A DNA stretch of 11,394 bases from a virus (lineage: Duplodnaviria; Heunggongvirae; Uroviricota; Caudoviricetes), in IMG/VR virus record IMGVR_UViG_2695420412_000022, positions 1 through 11,394 of that record; one strand, 5' to 3'. Below, in pieces: positions 1 through 7,478 of this stretch (the first letter of the stretch is position 1; each line of letters begins with the position of its first letter). Made by a program: the position numbers and the translations under genes. The notes below the pieces were generated by a model. The model was not told the DNA's origin, made no database searches, and was given only the letters and a program-made list of their open reading frames with translations.

Positions 1-171
1 TCAATAAATCCCATCATTGCGATCAACCTCATCCTTAACCATTGATGCGAGCAGTTCTTCCAGTTTCTGCGCTGACAGCTTTACCTGGTGATCTTCAGCA
101 TCTTCCCGGGCTATTGTGGTTCGCGCAGTGGCTGATTTTGCTGACATCACCACAGGGGGCAGACGGACCAT
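1..171 (-). CDS. hypothetical small protein (56 aa from the ATG at 171; alternative in-frame starts at 147 and 282)
   Basis: Open frame ending at a TGA at 3..1. The ATG at 171 is preceded by GGAGG about 10 nt upstream. No recognisable motif; it lies downstream of the short Tfa-like ORF on the same strand. Confidence 0.3.
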   Translation of the reverse strand: MVRLPPVVMSAKSATARTTIAREDAEDHQVKLSAQKLEELLASMVKDEVDRNDGIY

Positions 172-235
172 TGAACCATGGCCTCCGGAACAAATAAGGG
201 CAAAAATAACAACCACTATCGAAAGCTCACAAACT

Positions 236-451
236 AACCGCAGCACGTTCCTGTATACGACGTGTCTGCGGCATAATCCCAATGATTACTCCCTGACAGG
301 ATTTGCAGGCCACTCAATATCAGGTGCAGTTGATGTATCAACACGATTCAACAATACCCGATATTTATTCCATGCCTCCAGCAACGATCTTTCTTCCTCC
401 GTTGCGATTTCCAGATCTACAGCATCCTGCAGTGGCGCAATATACTCACTG
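236..451. repeat. direct repeat copy A (~215 bp, roughly 88% identical to 1286..1500): tfa 3' end plus ~50 bp downstream
   Basis: Base-by-base comparison with 1286..1500 shows the same sequence with scattered substitutions and a 1-nt indel. Homology stops abruptly at 451/1500. Confidence 0.85.
238..271. other. conserved stem-loop just downstream of the Tfa-like ORF stop (copy A)
   Basis: ccgcag-cacgt / acgtg-t-ctgcgg inverted repeat (6+5 bp stem with a 1-nt bulge, 11-nt loop). The equivalent hairpin is at 1288..1320. Confidence 0.4.
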
Positions 452-555
452 AATTCCTGGATGTAGAACTGTGTGGTGACGGTCTTCCAGCCATTCGGCT
501 CCTGCTGTATCGAAGCATACCAGGCTATTTCAATATCGCTATGCTGCGGCAGCAT
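286..555 (-). CDS. short tail fibre assembly (Tfa)-like protein, 89 aa; a Tfa C-terminal domain fused to a unique 35-aa N-terminus; possibly a remnant
   Basis: The C-terminal ~54 aa ([45 protein letters not shown]) are near-identical to the C-terminus of the full tfa at 1335..1919. It has its own ATG, an AAGGGG ribosome-binding site and an in-frame stop immediately upstream. Confidence 0.55.
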
Positions 556-582
556 TTAACCCCTTGTAATTCATCGCCATAA

Positions 583-611: not shown

Positions 612-1280
612 ATGGTGAAATTAATGAAAAAAAACACAGATGATGGGGCTAAAATTTACACACCACTTACCCTAAAGCTTTATGACTGGTGGGTTTTGGG
701 AGTATCAAATTGGCTTGCATGGGGATGTCCTACAAAGGAACACCTTCTTCCACACTTTCTGGAACATTTAGGTAACAACCATCTGGATATTGGTGTTGGA
801 ACTGGGTTTTACCTTACTCACGTACCTGAGAGTAGTCTGATATCTTTAATGGATTTGAACGAAGCTAGCCTGAACGCGGCATCTACAAGGGCTGGGGAAT
901 CAAAAATTAAACATAAAATTAGCCATGATGTTTTTGAACCTTATCCCGCGGCGTTACATGGTCAATTTGATTCCATTTCCATGTTTTACCTTCTTCACTG
1001 CCTGCCTGGAAATATAACTACAAAAAGCTGTGTAATACGCAATGCGGCGCAGGCCTTAACTGACGATGGAACTCTATACGGAGCCACAATTCTTGGCGAT
1101 GGAGTTGTGCACAATAGCTTCGGTCAAAAACTGATGCGCATTTACAATCAGAAAGGCATCTTTTCAAACACAAAAGATTCCGAAGAAGGCTTAACACATA
1201 TACTCTCAGAGCATTTCGAGAATGTTAAAACCAAGGTTCAAGGTACTGTAGTAATGTTTTCCGCTTCAGGGAAAAAATAG
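612..1280 (+). CDS. putative class I SAM-dependent methyltransferase (222 aa); phage cargo (moron) gene
   Basis: Rossmann-type motif I LDIGVGTGFY (aa 57-66), an acidic residue about 18 aa later (LISLMDLNE), and a motif II-like FDSISMFYLLHCLPG. The gene is visibly AT-rich compared with the flanking tail genes and runs opposite to them. The ATG at 624, preceded by GGTGA, may be the true start. Confidence 0.6.
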   Translation: MVKLMKKNTDDGAKIYTPLTLKLYDWWVLGVSNWLAWGCPTKEHLLPHFLEHLGNNHLDIGVGTGFYLTHVPESSLISLMDLNEASLNAASTRAGESKIKHKISHDVFEPYPAALHGQFDSISMFYLLHCLPGNITTKSCVIRNAAQALTDDGTLYGATILGDGVVHNSFGQKLMRIYNQKGIFSNTKDSEEGLTHILSEHFENVKTKVQGTVVMFSASGKK

Positions 1281-1285
1281 CATCC

Positions 1286-1500
1286 AACCGTAGCACGTTC
1301 TTGCTTAAGACGTGCTGCGGCATAATCCCAATGATTACTCCCTGACAGGGTTCGTAGGCCACTCAATATCAGGTGCAGTTGATGTATCAACACGGTTCAG
1401 CAACACCCGATACTTTTTCCAGGCTTCCAGCAATGAGGTTTCTTCCTCCGTTGCAATTTCCAGATCTGCAGCATCCTGAAGCGGCGCAATATGCTCACTG
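1286..1500. repeat. direct repeat copy B (~215 bp) matching 236..451: tfa 3' end plus ~50 bp downstream
   Basis: Same alignment as copy A. Begins 6 bp after the methyltransferase stop. Confidence 0.85.
1288..1320. other. conserved stem-loop just downstream of the tfa stop (copy B)
   Basis: ccgtagcacgt / acgtgctgcgg: an 11-bp stem with one G-U pair and an 11-nt loop. The stem is conserved with copy A while the loop sequence differs. Confidence 0.4.
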
Positions 1501-1919
1501 GCTACCTGCATCAGGTTGTTTTTTGTTTCTTCCGCCTCCCGGATCCGGAACAGTTTTTCTGCTTCCGTATCCTTCACCCAGGCTGTGCCGTTCCACTTCT
1601 GAAACTCCCCTTCCGGCGATAACCAGGTAACATTTTCCGGTAACGGACCGAGTTCAGAAATAAATAACTCGTCCCCTGACGCTACGTCATAAACCGTTTT
1701 ACCCCGATGGTCTTCAACGAGATGCCACGATGCCTCATCACTGTTGAAAACAGCCACAAAGCCAGCAGGAATATCTGGTGGTGCAATATCGGTACTGTTT
1801 GCTGGCAGACCTGTATGAGGCGGAATATATGCGTCACCTTCACCAATAAATTCATTAGTTCCGGCCAGCAGATTATAAATTTTTATGGTCCGTGCTTGTT
1901 CACTCATTCTGAATGCCAT
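1335..1919 (-). CDS. tfa: tail fibre assembly protein Tfa (194 aa)
   Basis: The full-length protein ([44 protein letters not shown]...[11 protein letters not shown]) closely matches lambda Tfa as I recall it. Its ATG overlaps the stf TAA stop (TAATG), consistent with translational coupling. Confidence 0.93.
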
Positions 1920-4900
1920 TATGCAAGCCTCACAATATAGTTAAATGCGATGTTTTTGACGGTGTTTTCCGCGTTACCCGCAGCGTTAACGGTGATGGTG
2001 TGTCCATGTGAACCAATCGCAACGGAGTGCGTATGCGCACCAATACCTACAGTATGTGCATGTGCGCCAGAACTTGCTGCAGTACCAGACAGCGAGTGGG
2101 TATGAGCACCTGCTGACTGTGTCTGAATACGTTGATAATACGATCTATAGGAAGAAGTCTCCGGGCTTACTTGATACTGTGAATTCTGGACATAAGTGAA
2201 CCCACCGCCATCATAAAATGCTAACGCAGAACCGCCGCCTCCTGGCCAACGAATACCATTACCATGAGTATGAACACCGGCAGACCCCGTAGAGCCACTC
2301 AGACTGTGCGTATGCGCCCCGGTGTTATTCGTGGATTTAGTGCCGTAATCAAACGACGATGTGGTTTTCGTCCCTAAATCCGTACTGGATGCGCTGGCGC
2401 TGTGGGTGTGCGATTTAATGCCGTCCTGTTCCTGAGACAATATGGCCCGACCACTGGCGGGCTTGCCCTTAATCATCCAGCCACGCATATCAGGGATCAC
2501 GCCTGACGGATAAGCAGCTGCAAGTTTCGGGTAAGCAGATTTGTCAAAAGTCTGCCCCTGCATCAGGGCATAACCAGACGGAACGGTATCTGATGGCCAC
2601 GGGATTGGTGCGCCGACTGGGTAGCTTTCTGGTGGAAGATTTTTCGAGGTATAAACTTCTGCCCAGTCTTCCTCAAAACCATAACCGTCTCTTGAAGAAC
2701 GGTAGAACAGACCACCATTTCTGTAATGCGCCTTCATCTGCAAGGTCCGGCAACTTCCGACTCCGGTATAGAAGTTAACCAGAATATAGCTGTCGCCAGA
2801 GCGAGTGACATTGTAAGCGCCTGATTCGGCATTCCAGGGAACGCCCCCATCCGCATCGGCATACGTATCCGTTGCTCTTCTGGCAAAAGCAGCAACATGC
2901 GCAGCGGTTAAAGTGATATCAGTAGAACCATCAAACGAAACACCAGATATTTTTATTGCTGTCTGAAGTTTCGTAGCTGTATCAGAATTTCCCTTAATCC
3001 CCTTAGGAGAATTAAGTGGTGTATTGATCGTCACTTCACCTGTTGCGTTATTTACTGCAAATGGTCGAAGACCGTTCCAGCCACCGTACTGGTCGCCTTT
3101 ATCAGTCATGAGCAAGTAAGTATTTGCTCCATCATTTCGCCATATGACACCGTAATCACCTGCAATCATCCTTAACGCGTTCTGACTACGGACAATAACT
3201 TCATCATTAGCGTAAATCTTATTCCCGCTAATGTCTGACTTACTCAAAACAGGATACGAACTATAAAATCCATTACCTTGTTTAAAATCTAAAATTAAAT
3301 TTACCGCAACTGATNNNNNNNNNNTCCAGCCGCGCATATCTGGAATAACACCTGAAGGATAGGCAATAGCCAGTTTCGGATATGCTGCCTTATCAAACGT
3401 CTGCCCCTGCATGATTGCATAACCTGCAGGTGGTGTATCTGATGGCCACGGCAGCGGAACACCTGGCGGAAACGCTTCAATATTTGCCGAGCCGTCAAAT
3501 TTTACGCCGTTAATTGTCCTTGCAGTTTGCAATTTGGTTGCTGTGCTTGCATTACCCGATAAAGATCCAGTGATACCACCACTCGCGTTTAATTTAGTTG
3601 CAATTGTAACATTGCCAGTATGGTTACTAATTATAAACGGCCTTAAGCTATTGTGCGTACCAAGACTGTTACCCGAATCTGTCAACATAAAATATGTGTT
3701 TGATCCATCATTTCGGATAAAGAATCCATAGTTGCCATAGGCAATACGCAGACCATTTGCTGACCTTGAAATAACCTCACCAGCAGCAGTTAAACCACCT
3801 GAAAGAGTCCCTCCAGTTAATGCCAATGCCCCAATATTTGAAGGGGTCAATGTGATATTTGCACTACCATCAAATGACACACCGTTAATCGTTCTGGCTG
3901 CCTGAAGTTTCGTGGCGGTCGCAGCATTACCTGTAGTGTTTTGATTACCGGTAGCGTTGACTCCAGGCAAGTTGATATCTGCCGATCCATCAAATGCCAC
4001 GCCCCCAATCTTACGTGCTGTCTTGATCTTGGTCGCAGTATCTGCGTTTCCGGTCAAATTACCAGTAACACTACCACCAACTTTTAGTCCATTACCGATG
4101 GACACCAACCCTGATCTTAAGTTTATAGAGAATGGTCTTAATGAACCGATGTCTCCATTTTCCCCCTCCCCTTCATTAGTCGGAATAAGATGAAGATGAT
4201 CTTCGGAACGCCTAAAAATAAGGCCAAAGGCTTGGTTGAATATTCGAAGAGCATTTATCGTGCTGATTTTTAACTGCCCTCCCATTGTGTCGCCAGTTTT
4301 TTGAACTGAACTATCTTTAACAGTTTTAACTGCCTTTGGCGTTGCCGCCAGCTTTTCACTGGTGCTGTTTGTTGCACTGCTGAGCTGTACTATCCCCTTT
4401 TTCGTCGTGCTCGCATCCTCCAGCGCTACGGCGGATGCAATATCCTCAGCCCGTTTTGCTGCTGTCTCGGCGCGCGTTGCCGCGGATTCAGCAGCAACTT
4501 TGCTCTGAGATGCAGCCGTCGCACTGCCTGCCGCCTCTGATGCTTTCGTTGTTGCTGTCGTGGCACTACCTTTCGCTGCTGACGCTTGTCTGGTCGCCTC
4601 ATCTTTTGAAGCAGACGCAGATGATGCCGATGACGCCGCTGAACTGGCTGACGATGCGGCTGCCGCCTTAGAGGAAGCAGCATTGTCTGCTGAAGTCTTT
4701 GCATTTGTTTCAGAGGTTTTTGCTGCAGAAGCAGACCTCGCTGCTGCAGTGGCTTGCTCAGTGGCTTTGCCAGCCTTCGTTGTGGCTGTTGAAGCGGATG
4801 ATGCGGCGCTTTCTGCCGATTTTCCGGCGGCGGTGGCACTGGCTGAGGCCTGCCCGGCACTTGTTGACGCGGCACTGGCAGATAATGCAGCCGCTGTTTT

Positions 4901-5794
4901 TGAACCTGCCGCAGCTGAGGCGCTCTGTCCCGCTGCTGTTTCAGAAGACTTAGCGTTCGTCTCGGACGTTTTTGCCGCCTTCGCGGAATTTCCTGCCGCC
5001 GTTGCCGAGGAAGCTGCACTACTGGCACTTGATGATGCATTCGTTTCTGAAGATTTCGCTGCCTCTTTTGAGGCCGCCGCACCCCGTGCCGAGGTGGCAG
5101 CTTCTGACGCCTTCGTGGTCGCTGTGGATGCAGAAGTGGCTGCCGATTTTTGTGATGCTGCGGCATTCGTTTCTGACGTTTTCGCGGCACTGGCGCTGGT
5201 AGCTGCCGCGCTTTTTGATGACTCTGCAGCAGCAGCACTTTTTGCTGCTTCACGGGCCTTTGTCGATGCCGTTCCTGCGCTGGAAGACGCTGACTGAGCC
5301 GAGGACGCGGCCTGTCCGGCTGACGTGTTGGCGGCACGTGCTGAGGCTGCAGCATCGGTTGCATGAGTTGCCGCCTCGCTGGCTGATGCACTGGCATCGC
5401 TGGCTGATTTTTTCGCGGCTGCCGTATTCTGTGCAACCGCGGAGGCGTTACGTGACACCTCTTCCACCATCTGCTCAAAGCGGCGCAGTGCCTCCGGTCG
5501 GACATCATCCTCCGTCATGGCACCGAGAAAATCATTCAGCGTACCTGGTCTGGAACCTTCATAGACGGTAATGGTCCCGGCATGTGAAGGCGGAAAACCT
5601 TCAACCAGCAGGGTGACGCTGTACTGACCATGCTCAACATCCATGCTGTAACGTCCGGCTTCATCCGGATTTTCAGAGGCCACCGTGTTCACCACCACCG
5701 TGCTGCTGGTTCGTCTGGCCTTCAGCACAATGGTGCAGTTCTGTACTGATTTTCCTGTGCCATCTTTAAGCACGCCAGAAATTTTTACTGTCAT
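1919..5794 (-). CDS. stf: side tail fibre protein Stf, long form (1291 aa)
   Basis: The N-terminal ~115 aa ([26 protein letters not shown]...) resemble lambda Stf. They are followed by a long Ala/Ser/Thr-rich tract with recurring KTSETNA motifs, four ~28-aa [22 protein letters not shown] repeats, two copies of a PWPSD...GQTFDK...YPKL...PDMRGW module, and a His-rich HxH C-terminus (GAHTHS, GAHAHT, GSHGHT). The frame reads through the 10-N gap. Confidence 0.9.
3315..3324. other. assembly gap (10 N) inside stf
   Basis: A run of n in the sequence, directly beside the first PDMRGW module. Confidence 0.99.
4400..5446 (-). repeat. low-complexity Ala/Ser/Thr-rich coding repeat region of stf (approximate bounds)
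   Basis: The translation is dominated by A, S, T and K with recurring SETNA motifs. GCN-rich codons produce long spurious ORFs in other frames on both strands. Confidence 0.7.
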
Positions 5795-5808
5795 ACTTTT
5801 CCACCAAT

Positions 5809-5840
5809 AAAAAAAGCCCGCAGCAGTGACGCCACGGGCT
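5809..5840 (-). terminator. candidate intrinsic terminator after lom copy 2 (weak)
   Basis: On the minus strand: a GCCCG...CGGGC stem with a 14-nt loop followed by a 7-T run, just upstream of the stf ribosome-binding site and ATG. Confidence 0.35.
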
Positions 5841-5945
5841 TCAGGACAGTGTAACTTTACGTTTCCTCAAACGCAGTTCACCCCATAAGGTGGATGAACC
5901 TGCGTATCATAACAATATTTACAGAAGATAAATCGGCGTCTGTTG

Positions 5946-6545
5946 TCAGAAACGGTATCCGATACCAACAATAAATGCATCCGTTCGCCAGTCGCCACTA
6001 CCGGAACCTTCATAAGCAAGGTCAATGGTCACGGATTCGGTCGGATTAAACTGCACGCCAGCCCCCCACGCCAGAGACGTGTTGCTGTGGCGACCGTCAT
6101 CACTTCCGGTCAGCACGTCGTGCGTTTTCCCCTTGTTGTCAATTACGCGGAGATAATCCCCGGAGAAAGTCGACACACGGCTGTAAGCCACACCCACCAT
6201 CGCATACGCGCTGAACCATTCATTCACGCGTACAGACGGCCCCGCCATCACGCTGAACCAGCGGTTACGCACGGAATCTTCATGCCAGCGGGTATCGCTG
6301 TAGCGCGTTTTTTGCTCATCCTCAGCATTGGCATAACTGAAGGACGTAATCAGCCCCAGCGCGTCCGTAAACTCATAACGGTATTTCACGTTAATCCCGT
6401 TCAGATCATCACTACCGGGAACGTTCGTCGAGGCATGGAGATACCCCGCGCTCAGCGTGGACTGATGTTCTGCTGCACTCGCTGGCGTAGCAGCGGCGAC
6501 CTGCCAGACTACTGCGGACAAAATAACAGCACATAATTTACGCAT
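5946..6545 (-). CDS. lom: Lom/Ail-family outer membrane protein, divergent copy (199 aa)
   Basis: Full-length beta-barrel protein with a signal peptide and the conserved Lom core (GINVKYRYEFTD, RWHEDSVRNRWFSVMAGPSVRVNE, GAGVQFNPTESV). A GAGG ribosome-binding site precedes the ATG. It differs from copy 1 mainly in the signal peptide and the SYANAEDEQKT segment. Confidence 0.9.
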   Translation of the reverse strand: MRKLCAVILSAVVWQVAAATPASAAEHQSTLSAGYLHASTNVPGSDDLNGINVKYRYEFTDALGLITSFSYANAEDEQKTRYSDTRWHEDSVRNRWFSVMAGPSVRVNEWFSAYAMVGVAYSRVSTFSGDYLRVIDNKGKTHDVLTGSDDGRHSNTSLAWGAGVQFNPTESVTIDLAYEGSGSGDWRTDAFIVGIGYRF

Positions 6546-6569
6546 AATTACCTCTCGCTTTTCTGCAAT

Positions 6570-6593
6570 AAAAAAGGCGCCATTTCTGGCGCC
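6570..6593 (-). terminator. candidate intrinsic terminator between the J 3' fragment and lom copy 2
   Basis: Minus strand GGCGCC-AGAAAT-GGCGCC hairpin followed by TTTTTT. Confidence 0.45.
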
Positions 6594-6612
6594 CGTATCT
6601 GGGTTATAAAAT

Positions 6613-7144
6613 TCAGCTAATCGTGATGCCTGCAGTGGCTTTCTTCATCACCACAACCAGCAAATCGCTGATACTTGCTGTGGGATACCAGTTATTTACC
6701 AGCCATGCTGACACCGAAAACTCCAGTGTCATGTGACCGTGACCGGCAGGCATATCAATAACACCACTGTAAATCAACGTATTATCCAGCGCGGTACGGT
6801 TATAAATTTCAGCACCGTTTTTCCGTACTATCAGGCGGCATGACGAATAAATATCGTTATTCTCCCGCTCATGTTTAGCGCCGCTGAATGCCACCGCCGG
6901 AATAACAATCTGCCGGTCAAACGGCTGATCGTCATAAACCCTGACGGTGATGGTCCCTGATGGCCACCGTTCCGGTGCACGGGAGTCCCGGGGGAAAGCT
7001 TTGCCCACTGTTTTAACGAGATCGCCTTCAATCTGGTTGGCGGACAATTTTCCCAGAACCCGACAGTTCTCGTTAATCGTGACGTTGTTGAGCGTCCCGG
7101 AGTTCGCATTCACGTTACCGCTGATATCGGCATTTTTCGCCGTC
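6613..7144 (-). pseudogene. J C-terminal fragment (last ~177 codons), duplicated, with no start codon of its own
   Basis: Nucleotide sequence identical to the J 3' end at 8146..8677. The upstream side is joined at 7145 (an N) to a stf 5' fragment in a different frame. Confidence 0.8.
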
Positions 7145-7145
7145 N

Positions 7146-7414
7146 AGAAAATCATTCAGCGTACCGGGTCGGGAATCTTCATACACGGTGATGGTCCCGG
7201 CATGTGACGGCGGGAATCCTTCCACCAACAGAATAACGCTGTACTGACCGTACTCAACGTCCATGCTGTAACGCCCGGCTTCATCCGGATTTTCTGAGGC
7301 CAGCGTGTTCACCACCACCGTGGTGCTGTTACGTTTTGCTTTCAGCTGGATTGTGCAGTTCTGTACCGGTTTTCCTGTGCCGTCTTTCAGTACACCTGAA
7401 ATCTTTACTGCCAT
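7146..7414 (-). pseudogene. stf 5' fragment (codons 1-89, [26 protein letters not shown]...LNDF), truncated at the joint with the J fragment
   Basis: About 85-88% identical to the 5' end of the full stf and closer to lambda Stf as recalled. The frame runs into J-derived sequence out of frame and stops at 7115. Confidence 0.8.
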
Positions 7415-7425
7415 ATTCACCCCAC

Positions 7426-7452
7426 AAAAAAGCCCGCCTGAACCGGCGGGCT
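7426..7452 (-). terminator. candidate intrinsic terminator after lom copy 1
   Basis: Minus strand AGCCCGCC-GGTTCA-GGCGGGCT hairpin (8-bp GC-rich stem) followed by TTTTTT. Confidence 0.55.
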
Positions 7453-7478
7453 GTCATAACACTGTGTTACCTGGCTAA

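Follow-up and report, generated by a model that had tools for sequence, protein, structure and literature searches.

The window, an 11,394-nt stretch of DNA from a tailed phage, carries on its minus strand a short open reading frame (ORF 286–555) that ends like a tail fibre assembly (Tfa) protein and begins like none. The first-pass annotation had proposed for it either a decayed second tfa or a minimal chaperone-like module. The locus raises the questions from where the two parts of this ORF originate, how they came to be joined, and whether the resulting frame encodes a working protein. The features on which the following analysis relies are:

236–285, minus strand: segment behind tfa with a GC-rich hairpin, of which a second copy follows the full tfa at 1286–1334 (direct repeat, RNA fold)
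286–450, minus strand: tfa 3′ end that encodes just the conserved C-terminal helical domain, codons 36–89 plus stop (Pfam, PDB alignment, direct repeat)
286–555, minus strand: chimeric 89-aa ORF, untruncated allele of K-12 tfaX, PHROG 2341 (ORF list, profile match, K-12 identity)
448–456, minus strand: fusion joint, codons 34–36, on a CAGG.A...AG microhomology common to both parents (three-way codon alignment)
451–555, minus strand: 5′ end of a phrog_3893 gene, codons 1–35 (hmmscan, tblastn, BLASTP, Citrobacter alignment)
556–565, minus strand: AAGGGG ribosome-binding site (565–560) and in-frame TAA (558–556), inherited with the phrog_3893 5′ end (sequence)
612–1280, plus strand: ybcY-like methyltransferase (class I, SAM-dependent), oriented divergently to the ORF (Pfam Methyltransf_12/23/25; phrog_2132, E 4e-155)
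1335–1919, minus strand: resident tfa of full length, 194 aa, representing the type from which the repeated 3′ end stems (Caudo_TAP positions 1–130 of 131, E 2e-44)

ORF 286–555 Is an Untruncated Allele of K-12 tfaX

According to the ORF list of the window, ORF 286–555 encodes 89 aa and starts with an ATG at 555–553. The ribosome-binding site, the start codon and the stop codon directly upstream that the first-pass annotation had described are all present, with a spacer of 4 nt between the ribosome-binding site and the start. In a PHROG hmmscan, phrog_2341 covered the 89-aa protein end to end (positions 1–88 of 88, E 4e-61). The 61-aa TfaX protein of K-12 is identical to residues 1–61 of the window ORF (61/61), whereby codon 62 reads TGG in the window and TGA in K-12 tfaX. 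Together with the profile match and the K-12 identity, a divergent ybcY-type methyltransferase gene directly upstream also agrees with membership in the PHROG 2341/TfaX family. Thus, the ORF is not new but belongs to an already named gene family (K-12 tfaX/ylcE, b0563; PHROG 2341).

At least 1000 public contigs carry the exact 89-aa sequence, annotated for example as “tail fiber assembly protein”, and the RefSeq PGAP annotation presents 286–462 as a tfa pseudogene without N-terminus. A screen of 5426 complete E. coli genomes yielded the N-terminal part together with the spacer (463–600) in 3868 genomes and the 2-kb block of tfa, methyltransferase and ORF in 1113 genomes.

Directly downstream of the ORF, PGAP calls a pseudogene that is interrupted by a stop and named “DUF4376 domain-containing protein” (window 1–189, minus strand, continuing past the left edge; L001 5920–6189), which adjoins an ompW fragment at the prophage end. 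The DUF4376 label of this fragment was not confirmed in a Pfam search. Elsewhere in the window, the region 5526–8163 contains a second, diverged copy of the J C-terminus (6613–7155), a duplicated lom (5946–6545 and 7479–8078, 86–91% identity) and a duplicated stf N-terminus (7115–7420 and 5526–5811, 84% identity). The J′/stf′ joint lies on a single N at 7145, and a run of 10 N is located within stf at 3315–3324. No complete E. coli genome contains the J′/stf′ joint in one piece, and the duplication reflects a rare rearrangement or else an artefact of assembly or scaffolding.

The C-Terminal Part Derives From the 3′ End of a tfa Gene

The earlier proposal that the C-terminal half is a tfa-derived module was borne out by three lines of evidence. 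Residues 31–86 match positions 75–130 of the 131 positions of the Pfam family PF02413 (Caudo_TAP; E 6e-25, 88.3 bits at a cutoff of 22.1), residues 32–86 align with residues 123–174 of the Mu Tfa protein (PDB 5YVQ_B), and the nucleotide sequence 266–462 is a direct repeat of 1315–1511 at the 3′ end of the full tfa (89% identity). The repeat extends about 30 nt beyond the ORF (236–264 versus 1286–1314, 83% identity). At the protein level, the C-terminal part shows 86% identity to the window's own Tfa over 58 aa. RNA folding of the segment 236–285 gave −24.2 kcal/mol (z −2.9), and the copy behind the full tfa gave −21.9 kcal/mol (z −2.2). The conserved hairpin of high GC content, CCGCAG(A)CACGU...ACGUGCUGCGG, is located behind both tfa stops (236–275 and 1286–1325, minus strand) and probably represents an end-of-operon terminator-like element, whose duplication went together with that of the tfa 3′ end. 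The possibility that the ORF is left over from an invertible tail-fibre segment was ruled out, since the two tfa copies form direct and not inverted repeats. In the window sequence, neither inverted repeats nor a LexA box nor a terminator-type site flank ORF 286–555.

For Tfa proteins, fibre binding has been attributed to a variable N-terminal domain and trimerisation to a conserved C-terminal helical domain in published structural work (PMC9608196). ORF 286–555 scores above the Pfam gathering threshold for Caudo_TAP but lacks the N-terminal fibre-binding domain. It is also not located where a Caudo_TAP gene is expected, namely directly 3′ of its cognate tail fibre gene and in the same orientation; this slot is occupied by the full tfa (1335–1919), and the opposite-strand methyltransferase gene is situated between the full tfa and the ORF. 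An AF2 model of the 89-aa protein reached a moderate confidence (pLDDT 68), with the best values for a helical hairpin at about residues 31–70, a region contained in the predicted helices H26–47 and H53–69.

The same strand is also matched by the Rfam small-RNA family IS009 (RF02111), so that the region might be read as a copy of this RNA family and not as a coding remnant. A cmscan search found 112.5 bits (E 1e-26) at 329–532 on the minus strand and 225 bits at 1378–1576 in the full tfa. However, the former value falls short of the gathering threshold of 117, model positions 1–63 align poorly, as they meet the phrog_3893-derived part, about a dozen model pairs are broken, and the model coincides with tfa coding sequence. 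We therefore consider a small-RNA origin highly improbable. The match at 1378–1576 (minus strand) falls completely within the 3′ half of the full tfa coding sequence, and the IS009 family itself may describe tfa coding sequence and not an independent sRNA.

The N-Terminal Part Is the 5′ End of a phrog_3893 Gene

It had been stated that nothing in the full tfa corresponds to the first 35 residues. This is correct, and the boundary was placed accurately, as the switch occurs at codons 34–36. In contrast, the view that this N-terminus is novel did not hold. The 35-aa segment was searched by tblastn against phages, by a 40-aa protein search, and by an exhaustive HMMER search, in addition to the PHROG profiles. 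In the PHROG hmmscan it matched phrog_3893 (E 1.6e-7), whereby the match is limited to positions 2–36 of the 79 profile positions; ORF residues 2–35 correspond to positions 1–34 of the family. In BLASTP the link to phrog_3893 was supported by 19/36 identities (E 4e-12). Apart from identical copies, tblastn revealed phage Ayreon with a match of 75%, Klebsiella phages including Kp4882-3 with matches of 54% (E 2e-5), and mEp390-type phages with weak matches close to dinI. At the matched sites a conserved 79-aa ORF was found, which reads MPRNSDIEIAWRQAIVIEPNGRRTVTT... in Kp4882-3 and begins with MPRQ.DIRAAF... in mEp390 and Eeyore. This 79-aa ORF family of Kp4882-3, mEp390 and Eeyore is PHROG 3893. 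Two Citrobacter genomes (L021/L022) carry an 80-aa phrog_3893 member with 77% amino acid identity to the N-terminal part and 75 of 87 identical nucleotides (86%) over window codons 2–30. Among the 1.84 billion representative proteins covered by the HMMER search, the matches were confined to TfaX variants, other fusions, and phrog_3893-type proteins. Neither Pfam nor NCBIfam holds a model for the N-terminal part or phrog_3893. Thus, a search with the N-terminal segment alone, which had been suggested as a check, did find a homologous family, contrary to the outcome “matches nothing” that had been named as one half of a refutation.

Full-length phrog_3893 genes are present in Citrobacter, in Klebsiella phage Kp4882-3, and in mEp390 and Eeyore. 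In their native setting, canonical LexA boxes are located upstream, dinI is divergent, and a umuD′-like Peptidase_S24 gene follows directly downstream; this context was found in the loci L008, L009, and L021. The pN/pS ratio between mEp390 and Eeyore is 0.11, which indicates purifying selection, and judged by this ratio phrog_3893 is a real gene. The phrog_3893 gene (3004–3243 in L009 (mEp390), L006 (Eeyore), L008, and L021) is unannotated or called on the wrong strand in mEp390 and Eeyore, where gp25 of mEp390 runs antisense to it and Eeyore carries an over-long DinI coding sequence, and NCBI records name some phrog_3893 fragments “DNA polymerase V”.

This antisense arrangement also bears on the possibility that the plus strand at 470–538 represents a DinI-family fragment, for which speaks that PGAP calls a partial “DinI family protein” there in strain JNE082640. 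However, the plus-strand translation has no Pfam DinI match and resembles only the spurious N-terminal extension of the over-long Eeyore coding sequence, in which the true DinI domain comprises residues 89–149, and this extension is antisense to phrog_3893, which shows the low pN/pS ratio in its own frame. We regard a DinI fragment as barely conceivable. A DinI origin of the N-terminal part was rejected as well, since the tblastn and PGAP labels pointing to it stem from opposite-strand or over-extended DinI coding sequences; such over-extended sequences antisense to phrog_3893 also account for the recurrent “DinI family” mis-call by PGAP.

The homology between the window ORF and the phrog_3893 alleles begins at the ribosome-binding site. 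In comparison with these alleles, the ancestral start corresponds to the second codon of the chimeric ORF, which is ATG in the Citrobacter, Ayreon, and P2-like alleles (resulting in an ATG-ATG start) and CTG in the window. The ribosome-binding site and the start codon were inherited from a real phrog_3893 gene and thus give no evidence that the chimeric ORF functions. The first-pass argument that these signals mark the ORF as more than a read-through fragment is therefore right about their presence but is no proof of function. No LexA site of the form CTGT-N8-ACAG was detected near the window ORF, and the N-terminal part has lost residues that are conserved in the phrog_3893 parent family.

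The Fusion Joint and the Linked Methyltransferase

In a three-way codon alignment with the Citrobacter phrog_3893 gene and the tfa gene of the window, the chimeric ORF was seen to consist of the first 35 codons of a phrog_3893 gene joined to the last 54 codons of tfa (from tfa codon ~141 on). The methyltransferase gene divergent to it probably starts with the ATG at 624, which is preceded by a GGTGA ribosome-binding site, since the PHROG profile aligns from residue 5. Its GC content of 33–44% is below that of the flanks. Across about 90 loci, which were drawn from genomes, IMG/VR, and phage records, the methyltransferase is 98–100% identical and located at a fixed distance upstream of the ORF, and in most of these loci a tfa 3′ end lies 61 nt past the methyltransferase stop. 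The methyltransferase/ORF pair occurs in lambdoid prophages, in P2-like prophages by gpH/gpG-type genes, and beside a tailspike gene without tfa.

Phage Ayreon carries a tfa 3′ fragment, the last 11 methyltransferase codons, the same ribosome-binding site region, and then a phrog_3893 gene that is retained for 50 codons, running past the position of the chimera joint, and has a stop at codon 33. Since phrog_3893 sequence here extends past the joint beside a methyltransferase remnant, we infer that the adjacency of methyltransferase and phrog_3893 is older than the fusion to tfa. The following order of events would be consistent with these observations. First, a ybcY-type methyltransferase moron would have landed beside a phrog_3893 gene and severed its LexA-controlled promoter. 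Second, illegitimate recombination on the few-base microhomology would have fused phrog_3893 codon ~35 in frame to tfa codon ~141. The resulting cassette would comprise the tfa 3′ end, a hairpin, the methyltransferase, the chimeric ORF, and a second hairpin, flanked by tfa direct repeats of ~230 bp. Third, these repeats would provide homology for recombination of the cassette into lambdoid and P2-like tail-fibre regions, as Tfa C-termini are conserved among many phages. Thus, recombination of the methyltransferase cassette between phages is probably assisted by these repeats of tfa origin.

The divergence between the window and a P2-like allele differs along the cassette. The methyltransferase shows a pS of 0.02, the spacer differs at 1 of 68 nt, and the N-terminal part differs at 7 of 105 nt (5 nonsynonymous and 2 synonymous substitutions), which corresponds to a pN/pS of 0.57 on a number of substitutions too small to tell neutrality from weak constraint. 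The tfa-derived part has a pS of 0.43 and a pN/pS of 0.23. This pattern fits the assumption that the C-terminal part diverged inside working tfa genes and was imported afterwards by recombination. The allele classes part from the window sequence within the tfa-derived part, namely at codons 66, 67, 72, and 79–84, and each diverging class has its own downstream context. Recombination through the tfa repeats would explain why the C-terminal tail of the ORF varies with the downstream context.

Allele Spectrum and Function of the Reading Frame

The ORF occurs in several forms in public contigs, with at least 1000 contigs each for the 89-, 88-, 101-, and 61-aa forms, 998 for the 82-aa form, and 800 for a 66-aa frameshift form that results from a 7-bp deletion. 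The 61-aa form is the K-12 nonsense allele. The 88-aa forms and further 89-aa forms carry different genuine Tfa tails, whereas in the 101-aa and 82-aa forms the last Tfa residues are swapped for unrelated sequence, the 101-aa form being without the Tfa C-terminal motif. Further tfaX alleles include a +1 frameshift, an internal deletion, and fusions to stf or terminase fragments. In a set of 11 phage records, the 89-aa form is present once and the 101-aa form five times, and the remaining five records have a disrupted allele (2G7b and PhiR49_1, 66 aa; PhiR68_2, 61 aa; Kati and Ayreon, 32 aa). A set of 80 IMG/VR loci had been pre-selected for an intact sequence of the first 55 aa and was excluded from the estimate of the intact fraction. 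The plaque-forming phages PhiR68_2 (L123) and Kati (L124) carry a DLP12-type right end with ybcY, truncated tfaX, appY, and ompT and appear to be living relatives of the cryptic K-12 prophage DLP12.

The presence of broken alleles in plaque-forming phages argues that the reading frame is dispensable for phage growth. The second half of the refutation named in the first-pass annotation, frameshifted or decayed variants in close relatives, is thus common, while its first half, an N-terminal segment without any match, did not apply. Between the two proposals of that annotation, the evidence favours the decayed tfa, as the minimal chaperone would be without a fibre-binding domain and without support from conservation; most likely, the 89-aa protein is not a working chaperone. 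We conclude, with a probability of about 0.8, that ORF 286–555 is a dispensable chimeric remnant at a phage mosaic joint. Against this conclusion count, for K-12, the in vitro binding of RNA polymerase to the ybcY/tfaX spacer and the tfaX hits in a macroarray and two overexpression screens, and furthermore the frequency of the intact 89-aa allele itself (at least 1000 contigs), the good ribosome-binding site and ATG, and the fact that diverged ORFs at 82–83% amino acid identity (P0022, P0032) are still open.

The latter observations would also suit a functional small protein, in which a module of only the Tfa C-terminal domain oligomerises with full-length Tfa and either assists fibre assembly or acts as a dominant-negative decoy that targets the fibres of phages co-infecting or superinfecting the cell. 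It would be in line with such a role that the retained Tfa segment is the proposed trimerisation part and that K-12 tfaX was a hit in overexpression screens. However, those hits concern the 61-aa truncated protein. Published work on tfaX comprises only RNA polymerase SELEX and H-NS data for the spacer, a macroarray hit, and hits in two overexpression screens, all of it on the truncated K-12 allele. Moreover, nonsense, frameshift, deletion, and tail-swap alleles are about as frequent as the intact allele and are found in viable phages, the nonsynonymous substitutions outnumber the synonymous ones in an N-terminal part that has lost conserved parental residues, and the confidence of the AF2 model is just moderate. 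The native promoter is also lost, and a sequence scan upstream of ORF 286–555 found no convincing sigma-70-like promoter; for K-12 tfaX, the -10 element of a predicted promoter sits over the start codon (PMC3946193). As the ORF is co-oriented with the late genes, it may be transcribed on the antiterminated late transcript. Taken together, a functional small protein appears unlikely. Still more doubtful is the specific variant that the 89-aa protein is made in lytic growth or in lysogens, co-assembles with resident or incoming Tfa via the trimerisation domain, and poisons or modulates side-tail-fibre assembly. If this were true, a decoy-type interference function would travel with the methyltransferase moron.

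Alternatively, it might be the DNA and not the reading frame that is retained, whereby the 5′ part with the 56-bp spacer would serve as regulatory region of the methyltransferase (promoter and H-NS region) and the tfa-derived part as recombination homology. The methyltransferase start is just 56–68 nt away from the ORF start, and a promoter-like sequence TTAACC-16-CATAAT is located at 556–583. In K-12, RNA polymerase holoenzyme binds the ybcY/tfaX spacer in vitro (SELEX peak) and H-NS binding has been reported there (PMC3946193). Furthermore, the spacer is nearly invariant (1–4 differences per 68 nt) while the frame is often broken, and the ORF is always linked to the methyltransferase. However, the promoter predicted for the methyltransferase is located outside the ORF, which would leave the retention of codons 1–35 without explanation, and Ayreon and the locus L004 tolerate the deletion of large parts of the region. 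A purely cis-acting role therefore seems rather improbable, albeit less so than a functional protein, and we retain the dispensable remnant as the preferred reading.

Implications

The finding is real but ordinary: a named prophage ORF with an N-terminus that is borrowed from another phage gene. Its consequences beyond annotation are small. ORFs of the tfaX type should be labelled as chimeric remnants (phrog_3893 5′ end plus tfa 3′ end) and not as tail fibre assembly proteins. The locus presents a clean, datable case in which illegitimate recombination, followed by homologous exchange, would have moved a ybcY methyltransferase moron between lambdoid and P2-like phages, with conserved tfa 3′ ends as portable homology for moron transfer.

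Comparison With Known Systems

With the Caudo_TAP proteins (lambda Tfa, Mu U/TfaMu, P2 G) the window ORF shares the C-terminal helical domain. It differs from them in that the N-terminal fibre-binding domain (profile positions 1–74) is missing, no fibre gene is adjacent, and the first 35 residues come from another family. The IS009 model (Rfam RF02111) runs on the strand of the ORF and overlaps its tfa-derived part. PHROG 3893, which belongs to a LexA-controlled module with dinI and a umuD′-like gene in mEp390-, HK022-, and N15-like phages, is homologous in the N-terminal part and has the ribosome-binding site region in common with the ORF. In contrast to full-length members of about 79 aa, the ORF lacks the C-terminal 45 residues of this family, and the LexA boxes, dinI, and the umuD′-like gene are absent from its surroundings. 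In the K-12 prophage DLP12, tfaD, ybcY (on the opposite strand), and tfaX follow in the same order as their counterparts in the window, and the ribosome-binding site region and the position after tfa are alike. K-12 tfaX ends with the TGA at codon 62 and is followed by a different tfa-type tail, whereas the window allele is open for 89 codons and retains the complete Tfa C-terminus (WPANPVRE).
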